A stretch of DNA of 64,000 nucleotides. Source: Octopus vulgaris. Its lineage: Eukaryota. The first letter of the stretch is position 1. Every line of letters begins with the position of its first letter. The DNA lies in assembly GCA_951406725.2 (NCBI GenBank), contig OX597842.1, positions 21,080,001 to 21,144,000 of the forward strand, in the 5' to 3' direction. A model generated the notes under the pieces. It was given only the letters and a program-made list of their open reading frames with translations. It did no database searches and was not told where the DNA came from. Both the position numbers and the translations under genes were made by a program. This document shows, piece by piece, positions 5,986-63,777 of this stretch.

Positions 5986-6517
5986 ATAAACTTGTGTGGG
6001 TATACCATTGTTTCAATGCCTCAATGAACTCTGACCCCTGTAAACATTGACATTAAATGGCTGACAGTGTTCCTGTTGCAATATTTACAATGTTGAATTA
6101 CTATGTCACTTAACTATCCTCTTTATCTTACTGCATCTTTTTATATTTCAGAATATCACATCATGTTGACATGAAAGAAATTACTTCGTTCAGATGTGCC
6201 TTTGATATTTTTATCAACTAAAGGAAGACGATATATTTATAAGGAGCATTCATCTATACATCAACGTTTCTATATAAATATAATCTATGACAAACAACAG
6301 CAGAATATTTTTCTTGTCTGGAATGTAGAGGAGGTGATTGCTTTACATATTTGGATAACTTTACAAACGAGTTGACAGTTTTCACCTGTTGATTTAGGTA
6401 TTAAGTAAGATCACAGAAGAAAGAAAGATTAACATTAAATTATTCTCTAAAAAAAGTAATGCAAATGGACACAAACATATTCATAGAAAAGAAAAAAACA
6501 ATATTATTGTGATATAT

Positions 6518-11622
<5,105 letters not shown>

Positions 11623-17548: not shown

Positions 17549-18243
17549 TAATGATGTGCAGGGCACTGACCATGGGCTCATCGTAGACAACATGAAGACA
17601 GGGACCTTCACTGCTGGATAGCTGGCGAGCTGGTCCAGAAAAGGGAATTCCGGTTGGCAACATGAAGTCTTAAATCAAACATTTTTCTGAAAGGTAAAGG
17701 TGAAGTGTGTAGTAAACTTGTGTGGGTATACCAATGTTTCAACAGCTCAATGAACTCTGACCCCTGTAAACATTGACATTAAATGGCCGACAGTGTTCAT
17801 GTTGTAATATTTACAATGTTGAATTACTATGTCACTTAACTATCCTCTTTATCTTACTGTTTCTTTTTATATTTCAGAATATCACATCATGTTGACATGA
17901 AAGAAATTACTTCATTCAGATGTGCCTTTGATATTTCTATCAACTAAAGGAAGATGATATATTTATAAGGAGCATTCATCTATACATCAACGTTTCTATA
18001 TAAATATAATCTATGACAAACAACAGCAGAATATTTTTCTTGTCTGGAATGTAGAGGAGGTGATTGCTTTACAAGTTTGGATAACTTTACAAATGAGTTG
18101 ACAGTTTTCACCTGTTGATTTAGGTATTAAGTAAGATCACAGAAGAAAGAAAGATTTACATTAAATTATTCTCTAAAAAAAGTAATGCAAATGGACACAA
18201 ACATATTCATAGAAAAGAAAAAAACAATATTATTGTGATATAT

Positions 18244-19077
18244 ATGACAAATTATCCTGTCATAATGAATAATTTAACTGAACCTAAAAACCCTGATACA
18301 AGAGAGAAACCATATTTCTGTGATGTCTGTGAAAAATCATTCTCTCGAAGAAATCACTTGACTATTCACAAGTGTATTCATACAGGAGAAATGCCATATC
18401 ATTGTAATGTCTGTGGTGAATCATTTTCTCTAAATAGCACTTTAACTCGACATAATCGTGTTCATACAGGAGAAAAGCCATTTCATTGTGGTATCTGTGG
18501 TAAAACATTCTCTCAAAGTAATGGCTTAACTAAACACAGGCGCGTTCACACTGGAGAGAAACCATATCATTGTGATATCTGTGGTAAATCATTCTCTTGT
18601 AGTAGCCACTTGTCTGATCATAAACGCATTCATACAGGGGAAAAACCATATCATTGTGATATCTGTGGTAAAGCATTCTCTGAAAATGGCACTTTAACTA
18701 AACACAAACGCATTCATACAGGAGAGAAGCCATATCATTGTAAGATCTGTGGCAAATCATTCATTGAAAGTGGTAACTTGAATAAGCACAAGCGTGTTCA
18801 TACAGGAGAGAAACCATATCATTGTGATATCTGTGGTAAATCATTTTCTGAAAATAGCCACATGTCTAAACATAAACGTATTCATACAGGAGAGAAGCCA
18901 TATCATTGTAATAGCTGTGGTAAATCATTTTCTGAAAACACCACTTTAACTATTCACAAATATACTCATACAAGCGAGAAGCCATATCATTGTGACATCT
19001 GTGCTAAAACATTCTCTTGTAGTAGCCACTTGACTAAACACAAGCGCGTTCATACAGGAAAGGAATTATATCCTTGA
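18244..19077 (+). CDS. C2H2 zinc-finger protein 2 (9 fingers)
   Basis: ORF 18235..19077 with ATG at 18244. It stops at TGT>TGA in a tenth, decayed finger, and further decayed fingers follow in the 3' region. Confidence 0.92.
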   Translation: MTNYPVIMNNLTEPKNPDTREKPYFCDVCEKSFSRRNHLTIHKCIHTGEMPYHCNVCGESFSLNSTLTRHNRVHTGEKPFHCGICGKTFSQSNGLTKHRRVHTGEKPYHCDICGKSFSCSSHLSDHKRIHTGEKPYHCDICGKAFSENGTLTKHKRIHTGEKPYHCKICGKSFIESGNLNKHKRVHTGEKPYHCDICGKSFSENSHMSKHKRIHTGEKPYHCNSCGKSFSENTTLTIHKYTHTSEKPYHCDICAKTFSCSSHLTKHKRVHTGKELYP

Positions 19078-19987
19078 GATATCTGTGGTTAATCATTCTC
19101 TTATAATACTCACTTGACTAATCATAAACATATTCATACTGGGGGGAAAAATTCACATCACTGTGATATCTGTGGTGAATTATTCTTTCAAAATGGCTAC
19201 TTCAGTACACATGTGAGTATTCACACACAACTGTAACTGTACCAGTATTGAAATTTATTACAACACGACAACAATAACTTCTATTTTTCTCTGCTAAAAG
19301 GCGTTTTTTTTTATCTCTTCAAATTTGATGTTATCAACTTCAAACTCATGAATATGAACCTGAATGCCGTGTATATATGGAAATATATCAACACAACAAA
19401 GCCTTTGAGGTGTCTTAACTAGACATCATCGTATTCATTCAGGGGAGAAGCCATATCAGTGTGATATCTGTGGTAAATCATTCTCAAAACAATCTCACTT
19501 CAGTACACGTTTGTGTATACACACTCAAGTATGACTATATAAGTTTTAAAATTTGTTACAACATACCTAAAATTACTTCTAGTTTTTCTGCAAAGAGACA
19601 GGGATTTTTTTTATCTCTTCAAATTTCATGGTATCGACTTCAATTTCATCAATGTCAACATCAAATTCAGCAAAGACTTTGATTTCTGAAGATGGTCATG
19701 CTGGAGTTTTGAGGAATTTGTTATTAGAGAATAAAGAATTGGGAATAATGAATAAAAACTGAATTAAACTGAAATTGGTTTTGTCTATTAACTTTCATCA
19801 TTGTCGTCATTTTCATCATCATCATCCTTCAGCGATAGCTTTTCTTTATATGCTGTCATGGGTGGGACAGTTTGACATGAGCTGGCAAGCCCTAATGCTG
19901 CACTAGGTTCCAGTCTGATTTGTTCTGGTTGCTTTGGATGTATTCTCCTAATATTAACCAGTTTACATTTTATGCTGTGTGCTTTAT

Positions 19988-24052: not shown

Positions 24053-24744
24053 TAATGATGTGTAGGGCACTGCCCATGGGCTCATCGTAGACAACATGAA
24101 GACAGGGACCTTCACTGCTGGATAGCTAGCGAGCTGGTCCAGAAAAGGGAATTCCGGTTGGCAACATGAAGTCTTAAATCAAACATTTTTCTGAAAGGTA
24201 AAGGTGAAGTGTGTAGTAAACTTGTGTGGGTATACCAATGTTTCAATGCCTCAATGAACTCTGACCCCTGTAAACATTGACATTAAATGGCTGACAGTGT
24301 TCATGTTGTAATATTTACAATGTTGAATTACTATGTCACTTAACTATCCTCTTTATCTTACTGCTTCTTTTTCTATTTCAGAATATCACATCATGTTGAC
24401 ATGAAAGAAATTACTTCGTTCAGATGTGCCTTTGATATTTTATCAACTAAAGGAAGATGATATATTTATAAGGAGCATTCATCTATACATCAACGTTTCT
24501 ATATAAATATAATCTATGACAAACAACAGCAAATATTTTTCTTGTCTGGAATGTAGAGGAGGTGATTGCTTTACATATTTGGATAACTTTACAAACGAGT
24601 TGACAGTTTTCACCTGTTGATTTAGGTATTAAGTAAGATCACAGAAGAAAGAAAGATTGACATTAAATTATTCTTTGAAAAAGTAATGCAAATGGACACA
24701 AACATATTCATAGAAAAGAAGAAAACAATATTATTGTGATATAT

Positions 24745-26145
24745 ATGACAAATTATCCTGTCATAATGAATAATTTAACTGAACCTAAAAACCCTGATAC
24801 AAGAGAGAAACCATATCAATGTGATGTCTGTGGTGAATCATTCTCTCGAAGAAATCACTTGACTATTCACAAGTGTATTCATACAGGAGAGAAGCCATAT
24901 CATTGTAATATCTGTGGTGAATCATTCTCTGAAAATGGCAGTTTAACTAAACACAAACGCATTCATACAGGAGAGAAGCCATTTCATTGTAAGGTCTGTG
25001 GCAAATCATTCATTGAAAGTGGTAACTTGAATAAGCACAAGCGTGTTCATACAGGAGAGAAGCCATTTCATTGTAATATCTGTGGTAAATCATTCTCTGA
25101 AAATGGCAGTTTAACTAGACACAAACGCATTCATACAGGAGAGAAGCCATTTCATTGTAACATCTGTGGTATATCATTCATTGAAAGTGGTCACTTGAAT
25201 ACACACAAGCGCATTCATACAGGGGAGAAGCCATATCATTGTAATATCTGTGGTAAAACATTCTCTCAAAGTCATCACTTAACTAATCACCAGCGCGTTC
25301 ACACGGGAGAGAAACCATATCATTGTGATATCTGTGGTAAATCATTTTCTCTAAATAGCACTTTAACTCGACATAAATGTATTCATACAGGAGAAAAGCC
25401 ATATCATTGTGATATCTGTGGTAAAACATTCTCTCAAAGTTATCACTTAACTAATCACCAGCGCGTTCACACGGGAGAGAAACCATATCATTGTGATATC
25501 TGTGGTGAATCATTTTCTCTAAATAGCACTTTAACTCGACATAAATGTATTCATACAGGAGAAAAGCCATATCATTGTGATATCTATGGTAAAACATTCT
25601 CTCAAAGTTATCACTTGACTAAACACCAGCGCGTTCACACGGGAGAGAAACCATATCATTGTGATATCTGTGGTAAATCATTTTCTTGTAATAGTCACTT
25701 GACTGTCCATAAACGCATTCATACTGGTGAAAAATCATATCATTGTGATATCTGTGGTAAATCATTCTCTCGTAAATGTCAATTGGTTAATCACAAACGC
25801 ATTCATACAGGAGAGAAGCCATTTCATTGTAAGATCTATGGCAAATCATTCATTGAAAGTGGTAAATTGAATGAGCACAAGCGTGTTCATACAGGAGAGA
25901 AGCCGTATCATTGTGATATCTGTGGTAAAACATTCTCTCGAAGTAATGCCTTAACTAGACACTGGCGTATTCACACTGGAGAGAAACCATATCATTGTGA
26001 TATCTGTGGTAAATCATTCTCTCGTAGTGACCACTTGTCTGATCATAAACGCATTCATACAGGGGAAAAGCCATATCAGTGTGATATCTGTGGTAAATCA
26101 TTCTCTGAAAGTCGTGTCCTAACTAAACACCAGTGCAGGATATAA
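24745..26145 (+). CDS. C2H2 zinc-finger protein 3 (16 repeats, 13 canonical)
   Basis: ORF 24736..26145 with ATG at 24745. Fingers 10 and 13 have Cys>Tyr, and finger 16 lacks the last His. Confidence 0.92.
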
Positions 26146-27130
26146 ACCATATCATTGTGATATCTGTAGTAAATCATTCTCATACAATAGTGACTTGACT
26201 ATTTATAAGCATATTCATACTGGGGAAAAACCATATCACTGTGATATCTATGGTCAATCATTCTCTCAAAAATACCATTTATGTACACATGTGAGTCTTC
26301 ACACAAAAGTGCAACCATTCAGTATTAATCTTTATTACAACAATTATGGCTATTTTTTTCTGCTGAAAGACAGGGCTATTTTTATCTCTTCAGATATGAT
26401 GTTATCAACTTCAATTTCAATAATGTCAACATCAAATTCATGAATGTCATGTATATATATGGAAGTATATCAACAATGCCTTTGATTTCTGAAGATGATT
26501 GCTCTGGATTTTTGAGCAATTTGCTTTGAGAGAATAAAGAAATGGGAATAATGAATAAAAGGTTACACTGAAGTTGATTTTGTCTATGTGTTTTCATCAT
26601 TGTCGCTGTTATCATCATCATCCTTTGGTGAAATTTTTTTCCTTTACTGGCATGGGTGGCACAGTGTGACATGAGCTGGCAAACCATGATGCTGCACTAG
26701 GTTCCAGTCTGATTTGTTTGGGTTTCTTTGGGTGTTTTCTCCTAATAGAGTTTATGCTTTGTGCTTCAAATATATGTGTGCGTATGCACACACATATACA
26801 TGTGAGTATGTGTATATATATGTAAATATATCATCATCATCATCATCATCCAATGAAAAAAAATATATATTTACAATGATACCGAGGGGAAGGGGTTCCG
26901 CCACACTTTTACCAAGCAAAAATAAGGAGTTTGCTGCACATTGCGAGGTCAGGGTACTTGATTCCATGCAAAAAATCTGAGTTTTTTTGTTTGTCTTTAT
27001 GAAAATCTTGTGGGTGAAAATATCAATATTTACCCGAAATTCTTCTGGACTCAAACTTCTCTGAAAAAAATTGGGACAGCAAATTCGTATGTAATCGTAA
27101 TCCAAACCATCTAAAAAGTATTATCATCGT

Positions 27131-33700: not shown

Positions 33701-34012
33701 CACTTAACTATCCTCTTTATCTTACTGCTTCTTTTTATATAATTTAGAATATCACATCATGATGACATGAAAGAAATTGCTTTGTTCAGATGTGCCTTAG
33801 ATATTTTTATCAACTAAAGGAAGATGATATATTTATAAGGAGCATTCATCTATACATCAACGTTTCTATATAAATATAATCTATGACAAACAACAGCAGA
33901 ATATTTTTCTTGTCTGGAATGTAGAGGAGGTGATTGCTTTACAAGTTTGGATAACTTTACAAATGAGTTGACAGTTTTCACCTGTTGATTTAGGTATTAA
34001 GTAAGATCACAT

Positions 34013-35406
<1,394 letters not shown>

Positions 35407-41901: not shown

Positions 41902-44900
41902 TTAAGCTGGGTTTCTGACGCCCACCTTTTTTTCCACTTCCTTCCATCTTTTCTCATACACACCCCGTGGTAAGATCCTCTTTTCCAGCCCCATTTTGCT
42001 CTTCAGATGATATCTGAAGTAAGTGAGCAAGCCGGGGCCCGAGACAAAGGATCCTATCGCGACTCCTTCCATTCTTGTTCGCCACATGCATTCTTTTACT
42101 ACTGCAACCGTGCAGTGAAAACATGCCTCACCCTCCTTCGAGAGTCCAGTTGGCGGTATCATCTTAATCATAGACTCAGCCGACAGCTGTACTCGTCCCA
42201 GATGCGATAACACGTGTTCTGCGTAACTTATCAAGTCGGACAACTTCCGACAGTGTACAAAAGCGTGCTGGACGGTTTCATCGTCCAACTCGCACCTTGG
42301 ACACGTCGGTGGCACTGAAATTCCGTGCCGCGATAACTTCTCGCGAACAGGTAAAGCATTCCTATAGCACTGCCAGGCCAGGGATCTTTGGAAATTATCC
42401 AAGTACCCCGTCCCGAAAGTCTTTTTAAACAGGTTGATAAGCTGGTCTTCGTCAAACCCCAGAGCCCCTCCTAGGACGTCGTCGTTCTTTGCCTCTACCA
42501 GCCTTCTATAAAATACCGAGGTGGTATTTCCGCAGCCGGCCTTGCCCGCCTTGTGGATCAGCGTGAGTGCCTGTCGGCACTCCTTTTGCCATGAAGTCAG
42601 TTTCCATCTTTTGATGAGACCGGGTTTAAAATTCACTAAGGAGGCCGGTCTCGGGAAAAATCCCCCTGCCAGCGGACTCCACACCTTATCACCCTCCAGG
42701 TGGTGCCAGAGATGCTTCAGCCTCAACGCATGTCTGCGCATCATCAACCAAGGCATTCCTAACCCACCCTTTAACGGTTCCTGGCAGCAAACGGAGCGCC
42801 TCACAAGTGGCTTTCCTCCCTTCCACAAAAAGCGGAAAAGGATTCGCTCCAACTTGCTAAGCCATGAATCGGGGCAAGGGACAACGGTCAGGCGGTAAGT
42901 GATTACAGATGCAATGAACATCTGCACCACCTCCGCCCTTCCTTTCAAGGACAGAAACCTTCGGGACCAGGTCCGTACTATGGCCTCCACCTTGCTCGTC
43001 ACCTCACTCCAGTTCCTCTCCGTTTGGGAGTCTGGCCCAAACCAAACTCCTAGCAACTTAACAGGGCCATCCGTCCAGTGTCCCACGATACTGGACGATA
43101 TCGACTTGCTCCTCCAGGTGCCGAGGCGCAAGCCAACCGACTTGTCCTTGTTAACCTTTGCTCCTGCCACCGCCTCGTATCCTCTGATAGCCTCTTCCAC
43201 ACAAGGTAGCTGGGCCTCATTGGACACGATGAGGGTGACGTCATCCGCATAAGCAGTAACCGTCCTCCCACCTCCGATCTCATCCGAGTTACTTCCCAGC
43301 CTCTCCAACTTTCGCAGCAATGGCTCAAGAGCCAACACGTACAAAAGTGGTGACAAGGGGCACCCTTGACGAACTGAACATTCGATCGAAAACGGTTCCG
43401 TTAGGTAACCGTTTATCTGGACGGTGGACTTGATGCCGCTATACATAGCGGAGATCCACCCGCGAAATTCAGGGCCCAGTCCAGCCGCTTCGAGGACTGT
43501 CGCCAGGTACTCATGGTCTACTCTATCGAACGCTTTACTTTGGTCTAAATGGACCATTACCCCGCCCTTGCCGGTTAATTTACCCACCCTATCTAAGGTG
43601 TAGCGTATAAGGTGAAGGTTGTCCTGGATTGACCTGCCTGGAATTGCACATGTCTGTGCTCTCCCTACAAGTTTCTCCACGACAACCGTCAACCTTTTTG
43701 CCAACACCTTGGCCAGAATCTTTAACTCTACATTAAGTAGAGTTATGGGCCTGTAGTTACTAATGTTATCCCCCTTGCTCGGGTCTTTCTGGATTAGCGT
43801 CACCACTCCCCGGCTTACAGAACTGGGAATTCTCCCATTCTGCTGCCAGTTCGTGTAGACGCCTGCCAATATTCCCCCGAACAAGTCCGGCATACTTTGG
43901 TAAAACTCGTAGGGCAGACCATCCAACCCCGGCGACTTCTCCCCGGCGCATCCGGCCAGTATCCCCTCTATCTCCGCGGGAGTGATCGCTTCTTCACAGC
44001 ACTCCACCTCACGCCCCGAGAGCCGCGGTCCGCCGGCCAGGAAGTCCTTTAAGGTCCTCCCCGCTCCGGCGCCACACCACTCCCGAACACGCGGGCGAAA
44101 TGCTGGTGAAGAAACTTTTGCATCTCCTCCTGTCCATAGATCTTTTGTCCCTGTTCGTCAGTTAAAGACTTGATTGAGGCTTTGTTACCTCTCTGACTCT
44201 CCACTCGACGGGCCCATCCGGCTAATACCTTCTCGTTTCCCAGCGCGTAGCTTAGCTCTGACTCTGCAACCTTCGTGTTTGGAGTTAAGGTGACGGTACA
44301 ATACCGTCCTTACCGCCATCACTCCGGATGCAGAGCCAGCTTCCATTGCCTCGTTTAGATTCTTAACTAAATCGTCCTCTATCCTAGACCTATCTATCCT
44401 TAGCTGATTGCTAAATCTAATGGACTCTGAACGAATGGCTCTTTTGAGGGAGTGCCACCATCTATTGTTAATGATGGTGCCACACAATGCCCTCTGTACT
44501 AATACCTTAATCCGGGTACGGAAGTCTTCACAATTCAAAATAGCCTTGTTCAGCTTCCAGTACCCGGGTCCCTGTCTATGACACTTGTCTAATTGCATCC
44601 TACACGTCACAAATTTGTGATCCGTGTAAGGCACAATGTGAAATTGTGGACAACTAAACGTATCCTTATCTCTTTTCTTAATAAATATCCTATCTAGATA
44701 CGATCTGTGTGAGCCGTCGTTGTTACTCCACGTCCACTGTGGAACGCTCGGCTCATCCAGTCGGTAACGGTCCACTAGATCAAAGCTCTCTAGTAGACCC
44801 TTGAGGCTAGGGTTCCCCTTCCTATTGGTTGAGCCAACACTGTCGACCCGCGCTTCAAGGACAGTGTTAAAGTCCCCTACTAGGATTACCGTTTTCGACG

Positions 44901-45285
44901 TCGCTAAAAAGGGCTCCAGGTTCCGAAAAAAACCCTTCTGTCTACCCTCATTCGGGGCGTAGACAGCTACCAACCTGAAGGACTGTTTACTTACGTGAGT
45001 CACATCCAGAACAACCAGCCTGCCTTCTGGGTCCAGAAAGACAGTACTTACCTGCAAGTCCAAGCTCTTCCTGATAAGGACTGCCACGCCTCTGCCTCTT
45101 CCTCGGCTAGGAGAAATAAATTTCTCGAACCCATTTAGAAGAGGCGAGAACGCTTGGGCCTCGCTCATCTTGGACTCGGTTGCAATAGCTATGTCTACTC
45201 CATGTGTCGTGAGGTCGTTCAGGAAACAAATTTGTTTCCGTTTCGACCCCATTCCACGTACATTCACACAACCCAGCTTAGCCAT
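41902..45285 (-). pseudogene. LINE ORF2 (AP endonuclease + reverse transcriptase + C-terminal Cys/His zf-RVT), two frameshifts
   Basis: Endonuclease motifs NVRG, GDFN, SYLDRIF, TDH. RT motifs SPGLDG, YRPITLLN, DQSKAFDRV, RQGCPLSP, YADD, then CPRC..H..C. Frameshifts at about 44225 and 44060. Confidence 0.92.
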
Positions 45286-45311
45286 TGTCGGTGAGAGAAA
45301 AATAAATGAAC

Positions 45312-46745
45312 TTACGGTTGAGAAAGGGAGCATGACAGTTTGAATCTGCCCGCTTCCCCTTCTTCCTCCCTTGTGGTCGTGGCTGCAGGGCTCTTAACCG
45401 GCGTTGCCACCGGGCTCTGGGTGGGTGTGGTTGCCGGGGTTATAACGAGTTTACCCTCCAGAACTTCTTTTGTCACATCTCTAATCAGTCTGTTCTTTAG
45501 ATGTTCTTGAAGAACTTCCTCCTTCCACTCGTCTTCCTTTATTTTCGCGAAGCGAGTGGTTGCTTTTATGTCTGTAGCCTTGCTATATAATTTAAATTTT
45601 GAAAATTTATAGTATTTATATACCCTTTCATTTTTCTCATCAAAAGCGATGATCTTATCATTTTTTTTTAAAGACTTTTTCACATCTTGTTTTATGGGGA
45701 GGGGCTTGGCGAACTGTTTCCCAATGAAAACAGTGCCATGGGGGTAGGGCTGGGGGATTTGTTTCGTGTGTATGTCTGCGGTGCTTGCTGATTTTTTCCT
45801 TGTTTGGGGAGGGGAGTCCAGGGTGTTGTCTTTTTTTCTTTTGTGTGTTACCTGTGTGTAGTCCATGTGTTCGGTACAATCCGTTTCTGTTTCTATGCTT
45901 GTCGTCGTCTTGTTATCCTTTTCTGCCTTCTCCCCTTCAGTGTTTGAAGCACTTTGAGGAGGGGCTTCATTGGTTTTCTTCTTTTTTATGCAGTTCGAGC
46001 GGACGTGACCCTTCTCTCCACATTTAAAACATCTCGGTCTGCGTCCCTCTACTGATACTCTCATTGATGTTCCATCTTCGTTGAATATCCTATCGGGTAG
46101 GTTCTCTAATATCTTATTTTCCGCCTGAACGAGGAGCTCCAGCGTCTGTCCCTTCCAGCGTACCTCCTCTTTCCTTCTCATCTGCAGAATCGAAATTTCC
46201 CGCTCTATATTGTGCAGGACCGCTGCTGCTACCCACATTATATCGTACCCTCTCGGTATGTCCTCTATCAGCAGTTTCGCTGTTCTTTTTCCCATGTACG
46301 AGGGTAGCAGCATGATCTCATCATTTTTCAGGGTCAATGATGACACCTCTCTTGCTATCTCCGCTGAGTCAAAATGTGCCTCAACAGTAGCGCTGCGCGC
46401 ACCTCGAACGACATGGCGAATTTTGTCCCACACCGGGGACAAGCACTTTTCGACCATTTCGTTCCTGACGTCCATAATTTTCTTTTCTTTGTAGCTATAC
46501 ACTTTATATATGACTGTTTTCTCCTTTATTTCTTGTACCTTCGCCTGCGGCGGTACAAGTTTGACTTCGTTTCCTTCCATTTTTACCAAGTTCCTGAATT
46601 CGAACAGTTGTTCGATCTTGAATTCAACGTCCATCATGGTTCCGCCTACCGCGGCCGAAAAAGACTGTTTGGTTACTTCCGTTTCCTTTAATTCACTTGT
46701 TCCCATCGCGGGGAAGTCATTCTTCGACGCCAAGTCGAAATCCAT
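45312..46745 (-). CDS. LINE ORF1 nucleic-acid-binding protein with CCHC zinc knuckle
   Basis: Open 477-aa frame containing CFKCGEKGHVRSNC, stopping 26 nt before the ORF2 ATG. Confidence 0.88.
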   Translation of the reverse strand: MDFDLASKNDFPAMGTSELKETEVTKQSFSAAVGGTMMDVEFKIEQLFEFRNLVKMEGNEVKLVPPQAKVQEIKEKTVIYKVYSYKEKKIMDVRNEMVEKCLSPVWDKIRHVVRGARSATVEAHFDSAEIAREVSSLTLKNDEIMLLPSYMGKRTAKLLIEDIPRGYDIMWVAAAVLHNIEREISILQMRRKEEVRWKGQTLELLVQAENKILENLPDRIFNEDGTSMRVSVEGRRPRCFKCGEKGHVRSNCIKKKKTNEAPPQSASNTEGEKAEKDNKTTTSIETETDCTEHMDYTQVTHKRKKDNTLDSPPQTRKKSASTADIHTKQIPQPYPHGTVFIGKQFAKPLPIKQDVKKSLKKNDKIIAFDEKNERVYKYYKFSKFKLYSKATDIKATTRFAKIKEDEWKEEVLQEHLKNRLIRDVTKEVLEGKLVITPATTPTQSPVATPVKSPAATTTREEEGEAGRFKLSCSLSQP

Positions 46746-47365
46746 TCCTCAAAGAATGTTTCAAAAATTACCTCGAAGGTAATAACAATTTTAAATACAG
46801 AATTTTCTGCCCCGTAGGGCGAAAATTACCGTTACACAACGGGCACTGTTCAAATAACAATTAACACAAACAACGATGATCAAAATTTCGAACTCTCTCA
46901 ACAAAGGCAGCAATTTCTCAAAACGCAGGAAAATGTGGAAAGTATGAAATGAATGTAAAAAAAGGGATAATATATGAGAAAATAAAAATAAAACGAACGG
47001 GACAGTTTATGCGAACAAGTTCAAGGTTGAGAGTTCAAGGTTAGAAATGTATAGACGTCGTGGTATATTTTTTAAGGATTTCACATCAATAACAAAGTCA
47101 CTTTGATCCGTGAAAGAGAGGTGCAGCCAATGGTAAGTATCCAAGGGGTAAAGAAAATCCAATGTAGAGGTAAGAGTTGATAGTGGTGTTGGTAGAATAT
47201 AGGATGAAAGTGAGACCACCTGAGCGCATAATATATAACGGGAAGCTTTATGAAAATAGACAAAAGACGAAGGCAGGTTTACGGAAATAAACAAAAGACG
47301 AAGGCAGGTGGAAGACAAACAAACAATTGTATTAGTATGGTACTCAGGAATATAAATAAAGCAAG

Positions 47366-47852: not shown

Positions 47853-47889
47853 GCAACACTATAGTGTGGTATCGTTGATGCTGGCCCAG
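47853..47889 (+). CDS. Ankyrin-RING-Death gene, exon (QHYSVVSLMLAQ)
   Basis: Polypyrimidine tract and tttcag|...cag|gttagt, phase 2-0. It reads as ankyrin helix 2 and joins the next exon in frame. Confidence 0.65.
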
Positions 47890-51801: not shown

Positions 51802-52014
51802 GATTCAGTGAAACTGGATATTGGGAATCATAAGAAAATAACACCATTGCTGGAAGCCGTCTCCAGGGCCCACCTCAGAATTATCCGTAAACTTATTATA
51901 CAGGGTGCAAATATTAATGCTGTCGACAATGATGGCAATAATTGTTTGCACCTCTCCATAATAAAGAAAGAGATGTTCCATTCTGAGGTGGAACCCATTC
52001 CCATTTTAGATGAG
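51802..52014 (+). CDS. Ankyrin-RING-Death gene, ankyrin exon
   Basis: TPLLEAVSRAH..GANINAVDNDGNNCLH. aag|...gag|gtaagt, 213 nt, phase 0-0. Confidence 0.9.
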
Positions 52015-54109: not shown

Positions 54110-54288
54110 TGCTGCAAAGAGCTCCAACTGGACATGGATAGGAGGCTCTCTGGAATAGTAGTTTTGAGTTACCTTGCCAGCCAAGGAGCCAGCTTATACC
54201 ATCGTAATAAGAAGAAGAAAGTGACCCCATTGGACTACATAGAAAATCAACATTTGAAAGAAAAATTACAAACATTTTTACAATCACT
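54110..54288 (+). CDS. Ankyrin-RING-Death gene, terminal ankyrin exon
   Basis: YLASQGASLYHRNKKKKVTPLD. ttgcag|...ct|gtaagt, phase 0-2. Confidence 0.88.
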
Positions 54289-55286: not shown

Positions 55287-55429
55287 GTGTTGGTTTTGTC
55301 AAGAGAAAAAGGCTACTGTCACACTCCATCCATGTCAACATACCGTTATTTGTCAGAATTGCTGTTCTCAAATGACATTTAAGCAATGCCCCATATGTCG
55401 ACAACACATACTCCAGAAAAGTGGATTTG
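55287..55429 (+). CDS. Ankyrin-RING-Death gene, C3HC4 RING exon (MIB/IAP type)
   Basis: CWFC..PCQH..CQNC..CPICR. tacag|...g|gtaaga, phase 2-1. Confidence 0.92.
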
Positions 55430-56278
55430 GTAAGAACATTCTTTCTTGATCTGTCTGTTGTCTCATTAACTTTCTGGTATGGAATAATGCACTTCATGTT
55501 GTAGTGGAGACATGCAACTCCTTGTTTGTAACTATATATGATTAACACTTGTTATAATGTTTGCCATCCTTTTAGACATTTTATACTCACACTCGTTAGT
55601 TTTTAGATGTGATTAATGCTAAAAGAGACATTGTTTTCTGACTCTTTCACCTTTTGGCTTTACTTTTGAGTTGATTCGTTTTAATTCGAACATGAAGCCT
55701 GGTCATTGCTCCAAGGTGGTATCAGAAAGTTCACGGACTAGTTCTGTAGCATGCCAACAGATGGCAGCACACCGTTTCGCGCACAGTGAGAGCTAGCAAT
55801 GACTTTCACGAGGCAGTGTGCTGGGTGACACCACTGCGTTTACTTCAAAAGTTGTGAAATTTGTGCTTTTGTGGTCATTTGTAGGCTGTAGTCTGCAATT
55901 TTCTAATGGGCAGGAACAAATAACCAATGTGAAATTTCGCGTTAGACTTGTCCAGCAAAGACATAACAAAGAAACAACAAAACTAAGAGAAAAAGAGTGT
56001 TATGAAGTGATAACTAAGTGAGAGAATTTCAGAATTGTTAGATTAGTATATAGGATGTCTTAAGAGAAAGATGAGATTTAGAAAGGTTTACCCATTTTGT
56101 TCTTGTTGTAAATATTGAACTATTATATAGTAACAGCTTAGAAAGTGTTGACTGAAAGCATAGTGGTCACCAATTGACTATTGATGATATGAATGCCTTA
56201 CAATAATGGAATATAGATTATTAAAAGAGACAAAGAAATTTTACTATGAAGTATAAAACTTTGAAATGCTTATTTCAG

Positions 56279-56991
56279 TGTGTCCAAAGTTTGAAGAGAA
56301 AGCAGTCCAGACGGTTGCAGAGTCTGTTGGTGAGTATAAAATAACTGTAATTGAATTCTATAAATTTTACCTTCACCTGAAATATATTATTTGTGTGAAT
56401 GTCTGAGAACAGGTTCCATTCTTAATTTCCAATTCTTATTTCAGTGTGTCCAAGGTGTAGAGAAAAAGCAGTCAAGACGGTTGTAGAGTCTGTTGGTGAG
56501 TATAAAATAACTAATTGATTTCTATAAATTTTACTTTCACCTGAAATATATTATTTGTGTGAATGTCTGAGAACAGGTTCCATTCTTAATTTCCAATTCT
56601 TATTTCAGTGTGTCCAAGGTGTAGAGAAAAAGCAGTCAAGACGGTTGTAGAATCTTTTGGTGAGTATAAAATAACTGTAATTGATTTCTATAAATTTTAC
56701 CTTCACCTGAAATATATTATTTGTGTGAATGTCTGAGAACAGGTTCCATTCTTAATTTCCAATTCTTATTTCAGTGTGTCCAAAGTGTGAAGAAAAAGCA
56801 GTCAAGACAGTTGTAGAATCTTTTGGTGAGTATAAAATAACTGTAATTGATTTCTATAAATTTTACCTTCACCTGAAATATATTATTTGTGTGAATGTCT
56901 GAGAACAGGTTCCATTCCTAATTTCCAATTCTTATTTCAGTGTGTCCAAAGTGTGAAGAAAAAGCAGTCAAGACGGTTGTAGAGTCTGTTG
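56279..56991 (+). CDS. Five tandem 51-nt microexons (56279-329, 56445-495, 56609-659, 56775-825, 56941-991)
   Basis: Each is bounded by tatttcag|...|gtgagt, is phase 1-1 and is stop-free: VCPKFEEKAVQTVAESV, VCPRCREKAVKTVVESV/F, VCPKCEEKAVKTVVESF/V. Repeat period 164-166 bp. Confidence 0.8.
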
Positions 56992-57412
56992 GTGAGTATA
57001 AAATAACTGTAATTGATTTCTATAAATTTTACTTTCACCTGAGATATATTGTTTGTGTGAATGACTGAGAACAGGTTGTAGGAAAGAAAAGACACAATGA
57101 AGAGAAAAACAGTGTTATCAAGTGATAATTGAATGAGATATTCGCAGAAATGTTAGATTATGTAGGCTGTCTTAATAGAGAGAGAAAAGGGGAAGAATTT
57201 AGGAAGGTTAGTCTATTTTGTGGTGGTCCTGAATAATGAGCTTTAACATGGTATCACAGCAGAAAGTATAAAAATATTAGCCAAAACCATAGTGGTCACC
57301 AGTTGACCATTGATAATAGGAATGTCTGACAATAATAAAATATAGAATAATAAGAAAAATAATTAAAAAAAATTTAACTATATATTGTAAAACTTTTAAA
57401 TATTTATTTCAG

Positions 57413-57484
57413 AGAGTTTAAATTTGGATGAAAACCGCTCCCATAGCACATCGAAGAAGGTGGCAGTTAAGCAACAGCAAGTTG
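57413..57484 (+). CDS. 72-nt symmetric exon, diverged copy of the Death-domain exon
   Basis: tatttcag|...cagcaagttg|gtgagt, encoding ESLNLDENRSHSTSKKVAVKQQQV. Confidence 0.65.
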
Positions 57485-59559
57485 GTGAGTATAAAATAAG
57501 TCCGTAAGTGATTTCAAATTAGTTTTACTTCACTTGAGCATATTTTGTTTGTCAGAAGGACTGAGAACAGGTTCCATTCTTAATTTTCAATTGAAAAATT
57601 ATCTGTTTAATAATTCTTTTGAAGAAATTACTGAAATTTAAGAGAATGCCCACCAAGGTTAGAACAGACAAAAGTTAATGATGTCTTTTGGAATAGAGAA
57701 CTAAAATATGTTATTTGGTTGGGGGTGAACAAGTGCTTTAACGACAAGGCCTTCATTTTACATTTATACTGTGTTTACTAATAAGTTGTTGTTGTTTTAG
57801 CAGGAGTCTCTCATAATCTGACAGACTTACAATGAAATGCATTCCAAGTGTCAACATCCTGTCTTTTTGTCACTGATAGGAAATCTATCATTACATCCAT
57901 TAAACGCATTGTCTTTATCGAAGTAGAAAACACTGGCTTGCTACTGAGATAGCCATTGCTTCTTTGTTGTTTTTCTCTCTCTCTCGCATTCTCTTTTTGA
58001 TAGATACTAGCTGCAAGATGCAATAAATGACATTGTCCTCATCATTTATCATCTGATTTCCATGTTCCTGTGGAATGGATGGTGAGGGGGGGGGTCACGG
58101 TCCAAGTCAGTTCTTATTAGCAGTTACTGTCCACCTTCGTTGGTTGAGGATCATGTCCCACTAGAACATTCCAGCTTTCCTATGATGGTCTGCCCTTCCT
58201 AACACCATCCACTTTATAAAGGATCCTGGGTGCATTTTATTGTGGCACAAATACAAGAAAGATTGTTATGTATTCAACAAAATTAAACGTTCCTCTCTAA
58301 CTTATGCAAAGAAATATCAGACATGTTGAAAGAAGAAAGGAAAGTAAATGAATTAGAGAGCAGCTCGTTAAGAAACCTTATGAGGTTACCCGGAAGCTGT
58401 TTGCAGATGCTAAGAGTGGCAGGATAAAATGTAATAAATGAAATCCAACTTAGGTATGGTTAGTGGTCAGTAGGGATAGCTAGAAAAGCTTTTTTAGCTA
58501 TTCCTACTGACCACAATATATATATATTTAACCTGCCAAGGTGATGAGCAAGTACCAGTTGTGTACTGGGATTGATGTAATCAATTAGTCCCCTCCTCTG
58601 TAATTGCTGGCCTTGTACCAAAATTTGAAACCAATATTATCCATTCCTGTTCAACTGTTTTCAATTCGCACACTACTACATGAAACCACAACATGCCATT
58701 ACGGGTTTATTTCTGCTAGTTATAGGCCTGAATGTCCATGTTAGCTAACTGCAGGTTACTCTCATTGTCAGATGATTAACCTTGGTCATTACATTGTATC
58801 GTTTAAAAAGAAACAATGTTTTAGTAGTTGAATTAAGCTTTTATTATTATTATTATTAATTATTATTATTAACATTCATTCTCTGAGTTCAGTACCTTCT
58901 TGGGTTGACTTTTCATTTCATTCCTCATGGGTCAGTAAAACAATTACAAGTTACATAACATGTCAAACTAATTGACTTCATACTCTCTCCTACAGATCTA
59001 TCCACTTGTATTAATCGAAGAATTCATAATTAGCATTCATTTTTCAAAACCCTCGTTACCACACTATATTGCTGTCCAACTGAATCATCTCTTCCAATCA
59101 TATCAAGTAAAACCTTTCGCTTTTCTGTATATTTTGGTGAGACTTCAGTTGGCTTTTTAGTGAGACTGATTGTTTGGTGTTTTAGAACGTGACCTTTAAA
59201 CCAAGTATTGAGAAGACGACCCATCAAGCCAAGTAAAATTGCAGTCGTGGCAGATACTGGTGCCGTGCTGGTGGCATGTAAAAGCACCCATTGCACTCTG
59301 GGAATGGTTGGCATTAAGAAGGGCATCCAGCCGTAGAAACCATGCCAAATCAGACTGGAGTCTGGTGCAGCCTTCCAACTTGTCAGCCTCAGTCAAACTG
59401 TCCAATCCATGCCAGCATGGACAATGGACGTGAAGTGATGATGATGAACTGGAGGGGCACATACAGGAGATCTACACTGATCCTAAGTGAGATAATTCAT
59501 TCCCACTCATGGACAGTTTGAAATGCCCCCAAAAAACCATGAATCAAATCTCAACTTGG

Positions 59560-60620
59560 TGGTTTCTAGCAGAAACAATTATATAGCTGAGTGAAGAAGG
59601 CAAAAGCAAAGAGTGACCCAGGAGGTGATGGTGTATCATAGAAAGTATTGTACACAATTATGTTATAAGCTGTACTTAAAGAGTTGTGGCATAAAGGTGA
59701 AATGGTTGATGAGTAGTACAAAGCAGAAAAAAATTACTTACCAAAGAAAGCTGAAACAGAACTGATTGAGCAGTTCAGACCCTTTTCAATCTTGAATGTA
59801 GATGGCAAGATTTATATGGGTCCAGTTGCCAAGAGATCAGCTACACATCTCCAAAATAATGACTATGAGACCGAGAGTGTCCAGGATGCTGGAATTTCCA
59901 GAATCACTGGATGGGTAGAACATGATTTTTCAATCTGCAATGCAATACAAGACACAAAGAAGAATAAAAGGGATTTGAACGTTGTATGACCTGATCTGGT
60001 TGATGCTTATGGTTCTGTACCACACAAATTAGTGATGGAACCAATGAACTTCTTTTATATATGAGAGAAGATTAGAGATCTGGCTAGAAGCTGCTGTAAT
60101 AATTTCAAAATGTGGTTCCTGACAGAAAATTTCACAACAGATATTGTTTTGAAACTGTAATTGCTGTAGGTTGCACAATATCAGTCATTTGGTTTGTGCT
60201 TGTTATGGAGATGTTACTTAGATCAGCAGATTGATCAGAAGAAATGGCTCGAGTGAAATCACCCAAGAAGGAATTTAAAAGATGATATAACAATACTAAC
60301 AAGAGACCAAAAGGGTATGCAAATAGTTCTGGATGGACTGGATTAACTAATTCTTTGATCAAGAATGGGGTTTAAACCAAATAATTAATGCAGTCATGTG
60401 TCAAAAGGTTAGCTGAAGCAAGTGAAGTTCAAAACAGCATACAAAACCATGTCAAGGGTTAAAGAGAAACCTCTAAAATCTATTGGACGATGGTATGCTA
60501 CCTCATTGTCCAGTGAGAGTAGAGGCATAGAGGTCATGGCACAAACTGAAGGCAATAGCTAAGACAACATTTCCTGGCAAATAAAAGATTTGATGCTTCC
60601 AGTTTGATCTATATCCCTGC
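59560..60620 (+). pseudogene. Decayed R2/Hero-like reverse transcriptase
   Basis: PGGDGVSY, QFRPFSILNVDGKI and DLVDAYGSVPH motifs, with many stops. Confidence 0.7.
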
Positions 60621-61155
60621 CTTGCTTATAAAATCCTTGAGTATCAGTTTTTATGCAACATTTCAGATTTTTTTACTGCTATAATGTATGGATGAACAAT
60701 TAAATATAGTTAATAAGATTTTGTGAAAGCATAAAGTGTTTGGATACCTGATATGTCTTTGTTCCTCCTCTGCCCACCTGGAAAGAAATCTGCTTCATTA
60801 AGAAGTCTTCTAACATCTCAAATACATGTGGCACATATATAAGAAAAAAAAATGAAAACTAAAAGAAAAACAGTGTTATCAAGTGATAATTAAATGAGAT
60901 AATTGTAACATTGTTAGATTATTTAAGATGTCTTAATAGAGAAAGGAAATTGAGGAAGGTTAGTCTATTTTGTTGTAGACCTAAGTATTGGGCTATTTAC
61001 CTGGTCCCACTGGAGAAAGCATAAAAATGTTGACCAAAAACAGAGTGGTCACCCGATGACCAGCGATGATGACAGGTATGTCCCACTATAATAAAATATA
61101 GATTATTAATAAAGAATTTTTACTCAAGTATAACAGTTGCAAATATTTATTTCAG

Positions 61156-61227
61156 AAACTCCAAAGTTAGAGGAGAAGTGTCTCCAAGATGTTGCAAAAC
61201 TGTTAGGAGTCGACTGGCAGCAAGTTG
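61156..61227 (+). CDS. Ankyrin-RING-Death gene, first Death-domain exon
   Basis: ETPKLEEKCLQDVAKLLGVDWQQVG fits the death-fold helix 1-2 pattern LxxVAxxLGxDW. tttcag|...|gtgagt, phase 1-1. Confidence 0.78.
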
Positions 61228-62533
61228 GTGAGTATAAAATAACAGTACTTAATTGATTTCAATAAGTGTCAGCTTTTGTTTGTCAGCATGACTAAGAGAA
61301 GATCCCATTCCTACTTTCCAATTGAAAGGCTAGCTGTAAAGTGATTCTATTAAAGGTGTTGGTATTACTGAAACATCATAAAATAGCCACCGAGATTAGC
61401 GGGGTCAGTAAAATGGCTAAATTAGAGGACACAATTGATTTAATATTGTCTTTTGAGAGAGCAAATTAAGATATGTCATTTAAGGGTAAACTGGTGAGTT
61501 AAGGATATTTTTTTTTTGTTTGTTTTACATTTTTACTAAGTTTACATTTTGTTGTTTTTTCTTTGCAAAATGCTTGTTTTAATCAGAAATACGATGGAAA
61601 GTGTTTCAGGTGGGACATCTCTGTCTTTCAGTTGGTAGTACAGGACTACATCATTAAGTGCATCCTTTTTTACATGCTCCTGTGTATAGTGAGTGACATG
61701 TTGCAGTCACTCCAGTGTCCATTTAGTTGTGAACCACTCTTCACTGACATGTAATGCTTGATTGTACGTAGGTGGATGGTGTTTATGTTGGTGATTCCTC
61801 TCTTCTTTCCTGCAAGTTAAAACTCTCCTCTTTGCTTGGTTTAACTTAACACCTCTCTATTACACTGAGTAACAACGATTTTTGTCCATGGATAACAATT
61901 GTTATTTCCTAGAAAATACGAGAATGGCTAGTATCTCCTTCAAACTTTGCTTTCGTCACAATATATACCTTGTAGACCTCACACATTTCAGCTGATGTTG
62001 TTTCACAGTGATTTTACGCTGTTGTCTTGATAAATTCACCACAGACACAGCAGAATGTATCTGCCAGATGCTTACAACCTCTTGATGCCATCTGTGATGA
62101 ATGCAGTTCTTGGATAGTTAGAAATAAACTGAACTGGTGATCTTATGATCCCTTTTTTTACACTGGTATCTATGTTGCCAGAACGTTCTAGAAATTCTTG
62201 GAAATTTTAGTAACTTCTTGATTATAGTTCTAGAAATTTCTAGAAAATTCTGCTTCAGTGACTCAGCACTGAATCTGTCTGGAAATAGGTTTCAAAACAT
62301 TGATGTCCAGGTGACAAAAGCAACATTTGAAGGGAACAGATGTCCTTTCCTTTGATTTCTTGATGGAAATAAATAGGAAATAACACTTAACTTATCAAAG
62401 ACAACAAAAAATTAAAAGTTTGTTAAGCAGTGTTATTGATTTCTCTCTAAATCATGTTCTTGAACCATTCAAAGAGATCCTTATTATGAGTCATGAACCC
62501 ATGTTGGCTACCAAAATGTGTTATACTTTTGTA

Positions 62534-63777
62534 TTGGGTCATCCCATAAGTAATGCAGTGTTTTCAATTGTATGAACTAAAAGTCGGAGGGGGATGGGAT
62601 AAACTACCTGCATCAACTTGCTATAAAAGCAGTACCTTGTACTTATTCTTAGTGTGAGTTTTGAAGAGTGCAGTTAAATTTTAACAGTTATTTTTTCAAA
62701 GCTATAATGGAAGTGACAAAGGAGCATATTCGACATATTTTGCTTTACGAGTTCAGTAAAAGCAACAATGCAACAGAAAGTGCGAGGAATATTAATGCAG
62801 TATATGGGAATTGGACAATAAGTGTAAGCCAGTGTCAATGGTGGCTCCAGAAGTTCCGAGCTGGAAACTACAGCCAAGAAGATCAACTTTGTTCTGGAAG
62901 ATATGTAGAGCTTGACGAGGACATCCTGCAAACCCTGGTGGAACAAAATCCCATTGTAACTAGCAGAGAAGCTTGGATTTGGTCATTCAACCATTCATCG
63001 ATACTTGCATGGTATTGGAAAAATCAGCAAATTGGGTCAATGGATTGCGCACAGAGTAAATGTGTGCTCTTCTCTGCTGTCATGTCTCATGAATGAACCT
63101 CTTTTGAACTGAATAGTGACTGGTGATGAGAAAAGGGTTCTCTATAAATATGTTATTCACCAAAGACAGTGGGTAGGGAAAGGAGAAATACTGGCACTCC
63201 AGAATAAAAAAGGTCTCTACCCATGTAAGGTGCTGTTATCTGTTTGGTGGGATATGAAAGGTTTGGTCCACTTTGAACTTTTAAACCCTAACCAAATGAT
63301 AACAAAGGAGATCTACTGCGAGCAGCTTGAGTGGCTTAAGTCAGTGCTAGAAGAAAAATGACCATCTTTGGTTCCAAGATGACAGGTGTTCTTCGATCAG
63401 GATAATGCTTGGCCACATACAGCAAGGATGATATTCCAAAGGCTGGAGCAGTTTGAATGAGAAACAATTCCCCACCCACCATATTCACCAGTCATTGCCT
63501 CATCCGATTATCCTTTATTCTGCAGTCTTCAAAATCATTTGGACAGAAAAAAATATGAATTCTGTAGATGCAGGCAGAACAGTAGTGGAGGAATATTTTT
63601 CATCACGGACAAGTCAGTTTTGGAAGAGGGGCCTTGCAAGTGCGCCAGATAGATGGAAGAGCATTGTAAAAAATGAAGGAGAGTATATTTTAGGTTAAAA
63701 AAGAACTCTGATTATCTTAATTTTGAAGAATAAAAGATGTATAAAACAAATGCATTATTATTTATAGGATGACCCAA
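62534..63777 (+). mobile_element. Decayed full-length mariner transposon
   Basis: TIRs ttgggtcatcccataa / ttataggatgacccaa with TA on the left. Transposase spans 62707-63698 (HIRHILLYEF, TGDEK, LSVWWD, DNA.PH) with frameshifts and stops. Confidence 0.9.

Follow-up and report, generated by a model that had tools for sequence, protein, structure and literature searches.

We analyzed a stretch of 64,000 nt from Octopus vulgaris (contig OX597842.1, positions 21,080,001-21,144,000, i.e., C29:21080001-21144000), called the window in the following, whose own positions are used for the coordinates below. Its + strand carries a gene for a protein with an ankyrin (ANK) region, a RING and a Death domain, and between the RING exon and the first exon of the Death domain (Death exon 1) lies an array of small exons. 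We read this array as spliced, frame-preserving copies of Death exon 1, which likely encode a disordered linker. The K-x-V/T-Q-T motif that such linkers carry across the family is predicted to bind the dimeric protein LC8, which would thereby zip up a pair of chains between their RINGs and Death domains. We give this reading a probability of roughly 0.55.

Tandem Repeats Finder reports a 166-bp array of 4.9 copies (56265-57077, 95% matches). An ATTTCAG acceptor and a GTGAGT donor frame five exons of 51 nt each (units 1-5, starting at 56279, 56445, 56609, 56775 and 56941) as well as two exons of 72 nt each (57413 and 61156, the latter being Death exon 1), and all seven are free of stops in the phase 1-1 frame. 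Their products are, in order, CPKFEEKAVQTVAESV, CPRCREKAVKTVVESV, CPRCREKAVKTVVESF, CPKCEEKAVKTVVESF and CPKCEEKAVKTVVESV for units 1-5, SLNLDENRSHSTSKKVAVKQQQV for the exon at 57413 and TPKLEEKCLQDVAKLLGVDWQQV for that at 61156. The last base of every small exon is G, i.e., each junction codon starts with G, and thus no combination of exons creates a stop. The introns between the units measure 115, 113, 115 and 115 nt such that the sole indel is intronic; unit exons differ pairwise at 2-9 of 51 sites, the introns at 1-2 of 115.

With regard to the origin of the array, the 330-nt flanks upstream of unit 1, of the 72-nt exon at 57413 and of Death exon 1 align with 239/338, 242/336 and 246/334 identities (71-74%). 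The respective alignment scores of 279-318 compare with maxima of 58-72 for shuffled sequences; downstream flanks score 83-127 against shuffled maxima of 35-53. As the upstream introns are far more alike than shuffled sequences, small exons and Death exon 1 have a single cassette as their common ancestor. Unit 1 itself matches Death exon 1 at 32/46 nt (score 33, shuffled maximum 24). A 166-bp part of the first cassette was later amplified five times. The original prediction, made from the letters only, had described the repeat units with their splice sites and stop-free exons, the intronic indel, the cassette copies around 56279, 57413 and 61156, the homology to the Death exon and a CxxC motif in four of the copies (CPRC in units 2-3, CPKC in units 4-5), all of which we recover. 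The parts of the gene found in the window are:

47853..47889, + strand: most 5' exon found, a remnant of an ankyrin exon, with the ATG of MLAQ at 47878; the O. sinensis orthologue models likewise begin with MLAQ
51802..52014, + strand: ankyrin-repeat exon, phase 0-0 (from sequence)
54110..54288, + strand: last exon of the ankyrin region, phase 0-2, which aligns as a homologue with the last part of the ANK region in MIB1 (contig ends protruding at 55287 carry its 3' end)
55287..55429, + strand: RING-HC exon, phase 2-1, with all eight zinc ligands intact (sequence, Pfam)
55964..56278, + strand: duplicated intron flank of the first cassette (repeat families D8, D9, D11 and D7; alignment test)
56279..56329, + strand: unit 1, 51-nt exon, EEKAVQTV, LC8-type anchor with hydrophobic +2 (joints 55429>56279 and 56329>56445)
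56445..56495, + strand: unit 2, 51-nt exon, CPRC, anchor lost (VKT) (joint 56495>56609)
56609..56659, + strand: unit 3, 51-nt exon, CPRC, VKT (joint to 57413, possibly of paralogue origin)
56775..56825, + strand: unit 4, 51-nt exon, CPKC, VKT (from sequence)
56941..56991, + strand: unit 5, 51-nt exon, CPKC, VKT (from sequence)
57413..57484, + strand: 72-nt exon, copied from Death exon 1 over the full length and since decayed, without LC8 anchor (flank alignment; joint 57484>61156)
61156..61227, + strand: Death exon 1, 72 nt, phase 1-1, helix 1 and start of helix 2 (Pfam, flank alignment; the contig loose end behind 61228 is the start of Death exon 2)

Splicing was assessed with assembled contigs from six runs presumed to be RNA (four studies). 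Contigs from three studies show GT..AG joints at the predicted borders. Among the joints listed, we find RING to unit 1 (runs X1, X2), unit 1 to 2 (X2, X3), unit 2 to 3 (X2), unit 3 to the 72-nt exon (X1, X2, X5) and the 72-nt exon to Death exon 1 (X3, X4); of these, only the joint of unit 3 to the 72-nt exon is backed by at least 31 letters on either side (X1: 48, X5: 32), compared to 20-26 for the remaining joints. Loose contig ends match the exon preceding the RING and Death exon 2. A large unlabelled run (X15) covers the introns and shows 0/4 of the listed splice joints. 51-nt exons are included in contig joints.

The joint of unit 3 to the 72-nt exon looks like a skipping of units 4-5. 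Two paralogues (L017, L025), however, carry such a unit immediately before their own 72-nt exon, and several unit-to-unit joints bear an extra A that is seen only at the start of paralogue units and is absent from the units of this gene. Because paralogue reads cross-map, the RNA joints may thus be of paralogue origin, and skipping in this gene is no more than a candidate. RefSeq models of the O. sinensis orthologue run to at least isoform X17 and differ in 17-residue steps; among the nine distinct models retrieved, some have a single unit (either unit 1 or a CxxC unit), others have two, three or four, and the 72-nt exon is missing from some. For one paralogue, fourteen models cover nearly all combinations of its four units, down to a form that has none of them, and an O. 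bimaculoides gene has three isoform forms; all of these are automated models and prone to the same cross-mapping. The idea that the exons can be skipped in any combination without frameshift hence stands on phase arithmetic and on annotated isoforms of orthologue and paralogues. Unit skipping is supported for the family; for this gene it is a candidate from phase and orthologue models.

Mutually exclusive use of the units was rejected, as contigs and isoform models join them in series. Tandem exons of Dscam are mutually exclusive, unlike the serial octopus units. A purely intronic minisatellite was rejected on account of splice joints, isoform models and the frame selection described below. 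Furthermore, several O. vulgaris models (P0001, P0020-P0023) splice the RING directly onto Death exon 2 without any small exon or Death exon 1. We rejected such a model (CAI9743648.1) as main form, since it lacks helix 1 and the contigs run through the small exons; the five models likely reflect an annotation gap.

The gene is one of dozens of ANK-RING-Death genes that form an Octopus family derived from Mind bomb. Named O. vulgaris and O. sinensis proteins (LOC115225502) match its RING exon at 100% identity, and the named relatives of this architecture all come from three Octopus species (20 of 150 listed matches looked up by name). A search with the 51-nt unit gave at least 78 matches (from the best 40 of 296 candidates), the donor pattern matched the genome 178 times, and the RING exon yielded 53 candidates, 40 of which were scored. 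From 60 stretches taken from the genome, which are an incomplete sample of the family, we collected 230 cassettes including the window, i.e., 45 Death exons 1 and 183 linker cassettes, while 2 clipped by a stretch end were dropped. The AG..GT sites are present in 167 linker cassettes and 16/183 are splice-dead. With a cassette picking that favoured exon lengths near 51 or 72 nt, 160/167 cassettes with intact sites are multiples of three (36, 51, 57, 66, 72 or 78 nt), none of which (0/160) has a stop; the 7/167 frameshifted ones, some perhaps assembly errors, hold both stops found. Frame and lack of stops are under selection across the 183 linker cassettes, the latter with P = 0.001-0.006 under neutral simulation (13 old lineages). 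The proposed comparison of copy number across paralogues gave 0-8 in-frame units per stretch among 29 stretches with young arrays.

Pfam finds ANK, zf-C3HC4_3 and Death domains in the host protein. That the Death domain is genuine is indicated by the Death profile (PF00531), which scores 34.9 bits on the O. sinensis orthologue (P0025) at a cut-off of 22.6. AlphaFold2 places confident helices at residues 281-358, i.e., a helical death fold. The linker in between (residues 184-272) has low pLDDT, mostly below 50, is flanked by confident domains and is therewith predicted to be disordered. Around CPRC, this model and that of a paralogue with four CxxC units draw short hairpins at pLDDT 23-55, and the latter model has no confident linker fold. 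A Foldseek search with the whole multi-domain model gave no match at E <= 0.001, an ESM Atlas search no usable match. As a side observation, a related Death domain ends a long O. bimaculoides protein annotated as adhesion GPCR (P0111, P0208), where it follows a Ser/Thr/Gln repeat; the same Death module may have moved onto receptors.

The earlier remark that KAVQT of unit 1 resembles an LC8-binding motif turned out to concern a conserved signal of the whole family, with LC8 docking as a prediction. Peptides were judged by published position rules, which according to passages of PMC6607443 ask for Q at 0, buried T/V/I-like residues at -1/+1, a large residue at -3, a polar one at -4 and P/D/E at +2. 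Older, widely spaced cassettes encode DKETQTQ, DKASQTE, EKEVQTE, EKGVQTV, DRCVQTE, DKGVQSD and DNEVQTE. In 9/13 old lineages a K-x-V/T-Q-T-type anchor is kept (8 of them also with K/R/N at -3) while the flanks differ at 35% of sites. The core rules are met by 35/60 old-family exons, 25 of these having the favoured D/E at +2. In 48 family proteins, which are related and non-independent, we count 30 instances of the motif within 2,256 linker residues, compared to 0 within the 18,771 residues outside the linkers. None of the Death exons has the anchor (0/44), and one Death exon type reads EEKCLQDV in register of the motif. Intermediates of 72-78 nt retain Death-like tails (EDKGVQSDAQLLG) and resemble the gephyrin site EDKGVQCE given in passages of PMC12057147. 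An O. bimaculoides relative has four diverged repeats of 17-18 residues with K-x-V-Q-T, and a standard 89-residue LC8 gene is present in the genome. With a period of 17 residues, motifs of 8 residues are set apart by linkers of 9; excerpts of PMC10046861 report that linkers of 6-9 residues favour uniform, homogeneous LC8 loading.

Several observations weigh against LC8 docking. Retention of the anchor is significant in a neutral star-tree simulation (P = 0.003-0.04 for the anchor, 0.002-0.04 with K/R/N at -3 considered as well), but this test presumes a star tree and a motif-bearing ancestor, whereas the flank-only tree that supplied the 13 lineages (one exon each) resolves little, i.e., 2 of its 5-6 label changes are forced by strong branches, and leaves number and direction of origins unfixed. 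Many TQT peptides fail to bind LC8, among the peptides tested also one with IQTVV at its end (passages and Table 2 of PMC6607443). The 166-bp arrays are young (introns 3-5% apart), and here 53/83 exons fail the core rules, the 30 passing ones never have the favoured +2, 17/29 stretches are without any anchor, and pN/pS is close to 1 (within arrays 1.11, between arrays 0.99); the motif of the young subfamily is thus without evident purifying selection. In the gene of the window, 4/5 units have K at the anchor position, a residue not among the LC8 motif variants named in the passages of PMC12057147, and unit 1, the only one to pass the rules, has the disfavoured V at +2. The product so has one anchor, i.e., fewer than the two sites of a multivalent client, compared to up to 6 in paralogues. 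The LC8 motif of the young subfamily is eroding or switching. By its sequence, unit 1 is likely the only LC8 site, predicted to be weak, and the on/off element of this gene; units 2-5 are most likely length spacers in which the anchor was lost (Q to K) and CxxC gained. We keep the weak unit 1 in play because weak sites close together can bind cooperatively, as reported in parts of PMC12803091, and because of the favourable linker length.

These observations also bear on other explanations. The array might be a passive spacer, i.e., a 166-bp minisatellite that happens to contain a symmetric exon, of which only frame and lack of stops are selected while peptide and skipping are noise tolerated in a young subfamily. 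The pN/pS values fit this, as do the observed changes (11/34 possible synonymous, 39/103 non-synonymous), the even split of the anchor position among 49 distinct young exons (Q in 24, K in 25), the 7 frameshifted and 16 splice-dead cassettes, and the missing N-terminal ankyrin array of this gene. We nevertheless consider a mere spacer rather unlikely, given that old lineages hold the anchor beyond neutral expectation and several young genes amplified anchor-bearing units 4-6 times. Drift alone does not predict either that exons of young arrays vary more than introns (50/138 vs. 42/231 possible changes, P = 0.0002). This excess, which fits diversifying selection, intron constraint or intron-biased homogenisation alike, would suit a linker that serves as diversified bait or epitope: a fast-changing arms-race surface (e.g., a protease or effector target) with exons shuffled for variety and the LC8 likeness a relic. 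Variability in exons is about threefold that in introns, the young units are heavily recombined (96/153 site pairs fail the four-gamete test, i.e., exons are shuffled between units), and one Death exon-1 type shows the same excess (27/201 vs. 8/231). Synonymous sites are, however, raised as much as non-synonymous ones, which equally fits intron homogenisation or constraint, and we deem a bait very improbable.

The CxxC motif suggests yet another function, namely that these units form zinc knuckles which pair along one chain or between two and which took over pairing from LC8 in part of the young subfamily. The zinc hook of Rad50 is the model for this idea. CxxC is tied to anchor loss, as K takes the anchor position in 14/17 distinct units with CxxC (odds ratio 8.9, P = 0.002); 16/17 of the 36-nt units are without the motif core yet have CxxC, in runs of up to five; a CPKC unit is found in O. 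bimaculoides, too (P0019); and AlphaFold2 draws the hairpins mentioned above. On the other hand, shared descent can explain the association, CxxC arises through one base change with the codon toggling between TCT, TGT, TTT and TAT, and pLDDT is low at these units. The motif is labile across paralogues, i.e., present in 4 units of this gene, missing from 15/29 young stretches and from all old lineages, and its second Cys occurs in just 18/74 young 51-nt units. Metal-binding knuckles, as once envisaged for the array, thus find no backing in a confident fold, and a zinc clasp seems quite improbable to us. The 36-nt exons belong to 151-bp variant arrays in four stretches (L028, L030, L032 and L034, C29:28.5-30.2 Mb), where the LC8 motif core is deleted, CxxC is kept and runs of up to five units are seen.

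The host protein was initially taken for an E3 ligase. As in Mind bomb, a RING of IAP/MIB type comes after an ankyrin region, whose end can be aligned with that of MIB1 (residues 4-124 to 246-377, E 3.7e-12), while the N-terminal MZM/REP substrate region gave no Pfam match in 6/6 family proteins scanned. The retained RING scores higher with non-terminal (first) than with terminal Mind bomb RINGs (132 vs. 66 and 77 vs. 51). That is, the terminal coiled-coil RING is absent and a Death domain sits at the C-terminal end; Octopus relatives with a second RING in its place exist (P0061, P0063). In MIB1, only the terminal coiled-coil RING3 (ccRING3) dimerises and ubiquitinates, and RING1-2 without it are inactive (sections of bioRxiv 10.1101/2024.03.01.582834; PDB 8v0e). 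The RING of this gene keeps eight zinc ligands and its P-I-C-R end, whereas paralogues differ in the end motif and include some with a broken RING. E3 activity is doubtful on this sequence comparison, and 'adaptor derived from ligase' is the safer label, because the RING is of the type inactive in MIB1 and RINGs vary or break in paralogues. Where MIB1/MIB2 end in a catalytic RING that dimerises, this protein has the repeat linker and the Death domain instead.

Disordered linkers with repeats of a short Q-anchored motif, favourable spacing and weak sites that can cooperate are likewise described for the multivalent LC8/DYNLL clients ASCIZ, Nup159 and KANK1 L2 (passages of PMC10046861, PMC12803091 and PMC6607443). 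In contrast, each octopus motif has its own symmetric exon copied from a Death exon, the number varies by paralogue and isoform, and LC8 binding is a prediction. The C-terminal helical domain resembles Death-domain adaptors, i.e., ankyrin-G (4o6x, TM 0.78 by target, rmsd 1.6) and FADD (3ezq/6aci, TM 0.71-0.77), with E above 0.001 for the multi-domain model. Different from these, it is fused behind ANK-RING and its first exon is the raw material for a linear motif. Phase-symmetric exons with disordered products are known to be exchanged as modules by tandem duplication (excerpts of PMC3632108), whereas in the octopus array whole units of intron and exon, which are included in series, were multiplied as a 166-bp minisatellite. 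The single ingredients are thus already known and the combination apparently undescribed: literature listings (subscription papers being outside their scope) contain no account of this family, nor of LC8 valency set by exons.

Around the array, the gene continues beyond the window end, with Death exon 2 starting 688 nt further on at C29:21144688. A search for more ankyrin exons in the upstream part of the window and in the 30 kb before it (C29:21050001-21080000) found none. Paralogues such as P0011 have a long ankyrin array at the N-terminus that is absent from this gene copy in O. vulgaris and O. sinensis models alike; the copy is nevertheless open and spliced, possibly as a sensor-less adaptor or decoy. 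About 1.1 kb upstream of the first remaining exon lies a non-LTR retroelement-like sequence (41905-46748, - strand, open frames of 478, 402 and 751 codons), which may indicate the breakpoint at which the ankyrin array was lost. The gene adjoins a cluster to which four tandem C2H2 zinc-finger genes with a common N-terminal stretch belong (6398-8020, 18124-19202, 24679-26271 and 34001-35386). Behind the open reading frame at 6398-8020, positions 8091-11621 hold 46.5 near-identical 76-bp units derived from the last finger of the C2H2 gene (normal unit 84 bp); each copy changes the frame, i.e., a coding repeat has turned satellite. Finally, a decayed sequence at about 62650-63760, within the intron that separates the two Death exons, resembles a mariner-type transposase.

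Taken as a sequence of events, the cassette of Death exon 1 was duplicated repeatedly, with shortened copies (36-78 nt, multiples of three) retained in mRNA. The helix-1 register K-C-L-Q-D would then have become K-x-V-Q-T, i.e., an LC8 site in an unfolded context, as the conservation in old lineages suggests. MIB1 owes its pairing to the coiled-coil RING3, a region exchanged here for the Death domain; bridging by LC8 would take over this function and would further pre-arrange the Death domains for signalling. Unit numbers of 0-8 in paralogues, seen in the genome, and isoform skipping, partly seen in transcripts, would result in variable valency and spacing, such that exon number likely tunes how two protein copies are held together. 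An extension, in which the Death helix exon became an LC8 docking module that in the young subfamily competes with a CxxC metal clasp, with copy number and skipping choosing LC8-zippered, zinc-clasped or monomeric forms across dozens of adaptors, we regard as improbable.

For annotation, the results mean that a large Octopus family is wrongly named MIB2 or ankyrin-3 and that O. vulgaris models omit the small exons and part of the Death domain. If LC8 binds, the family would allow one to trace how part of a folded domain turned into a short linear motif, since the genome still contains full-length intermediates. It would also be a naturally occurring library in which exon count sets LC8 valency (0-6 sites), motif strength and spacing. 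Questions of LC8 multivalency and of motif origin would thereby become directly testable.

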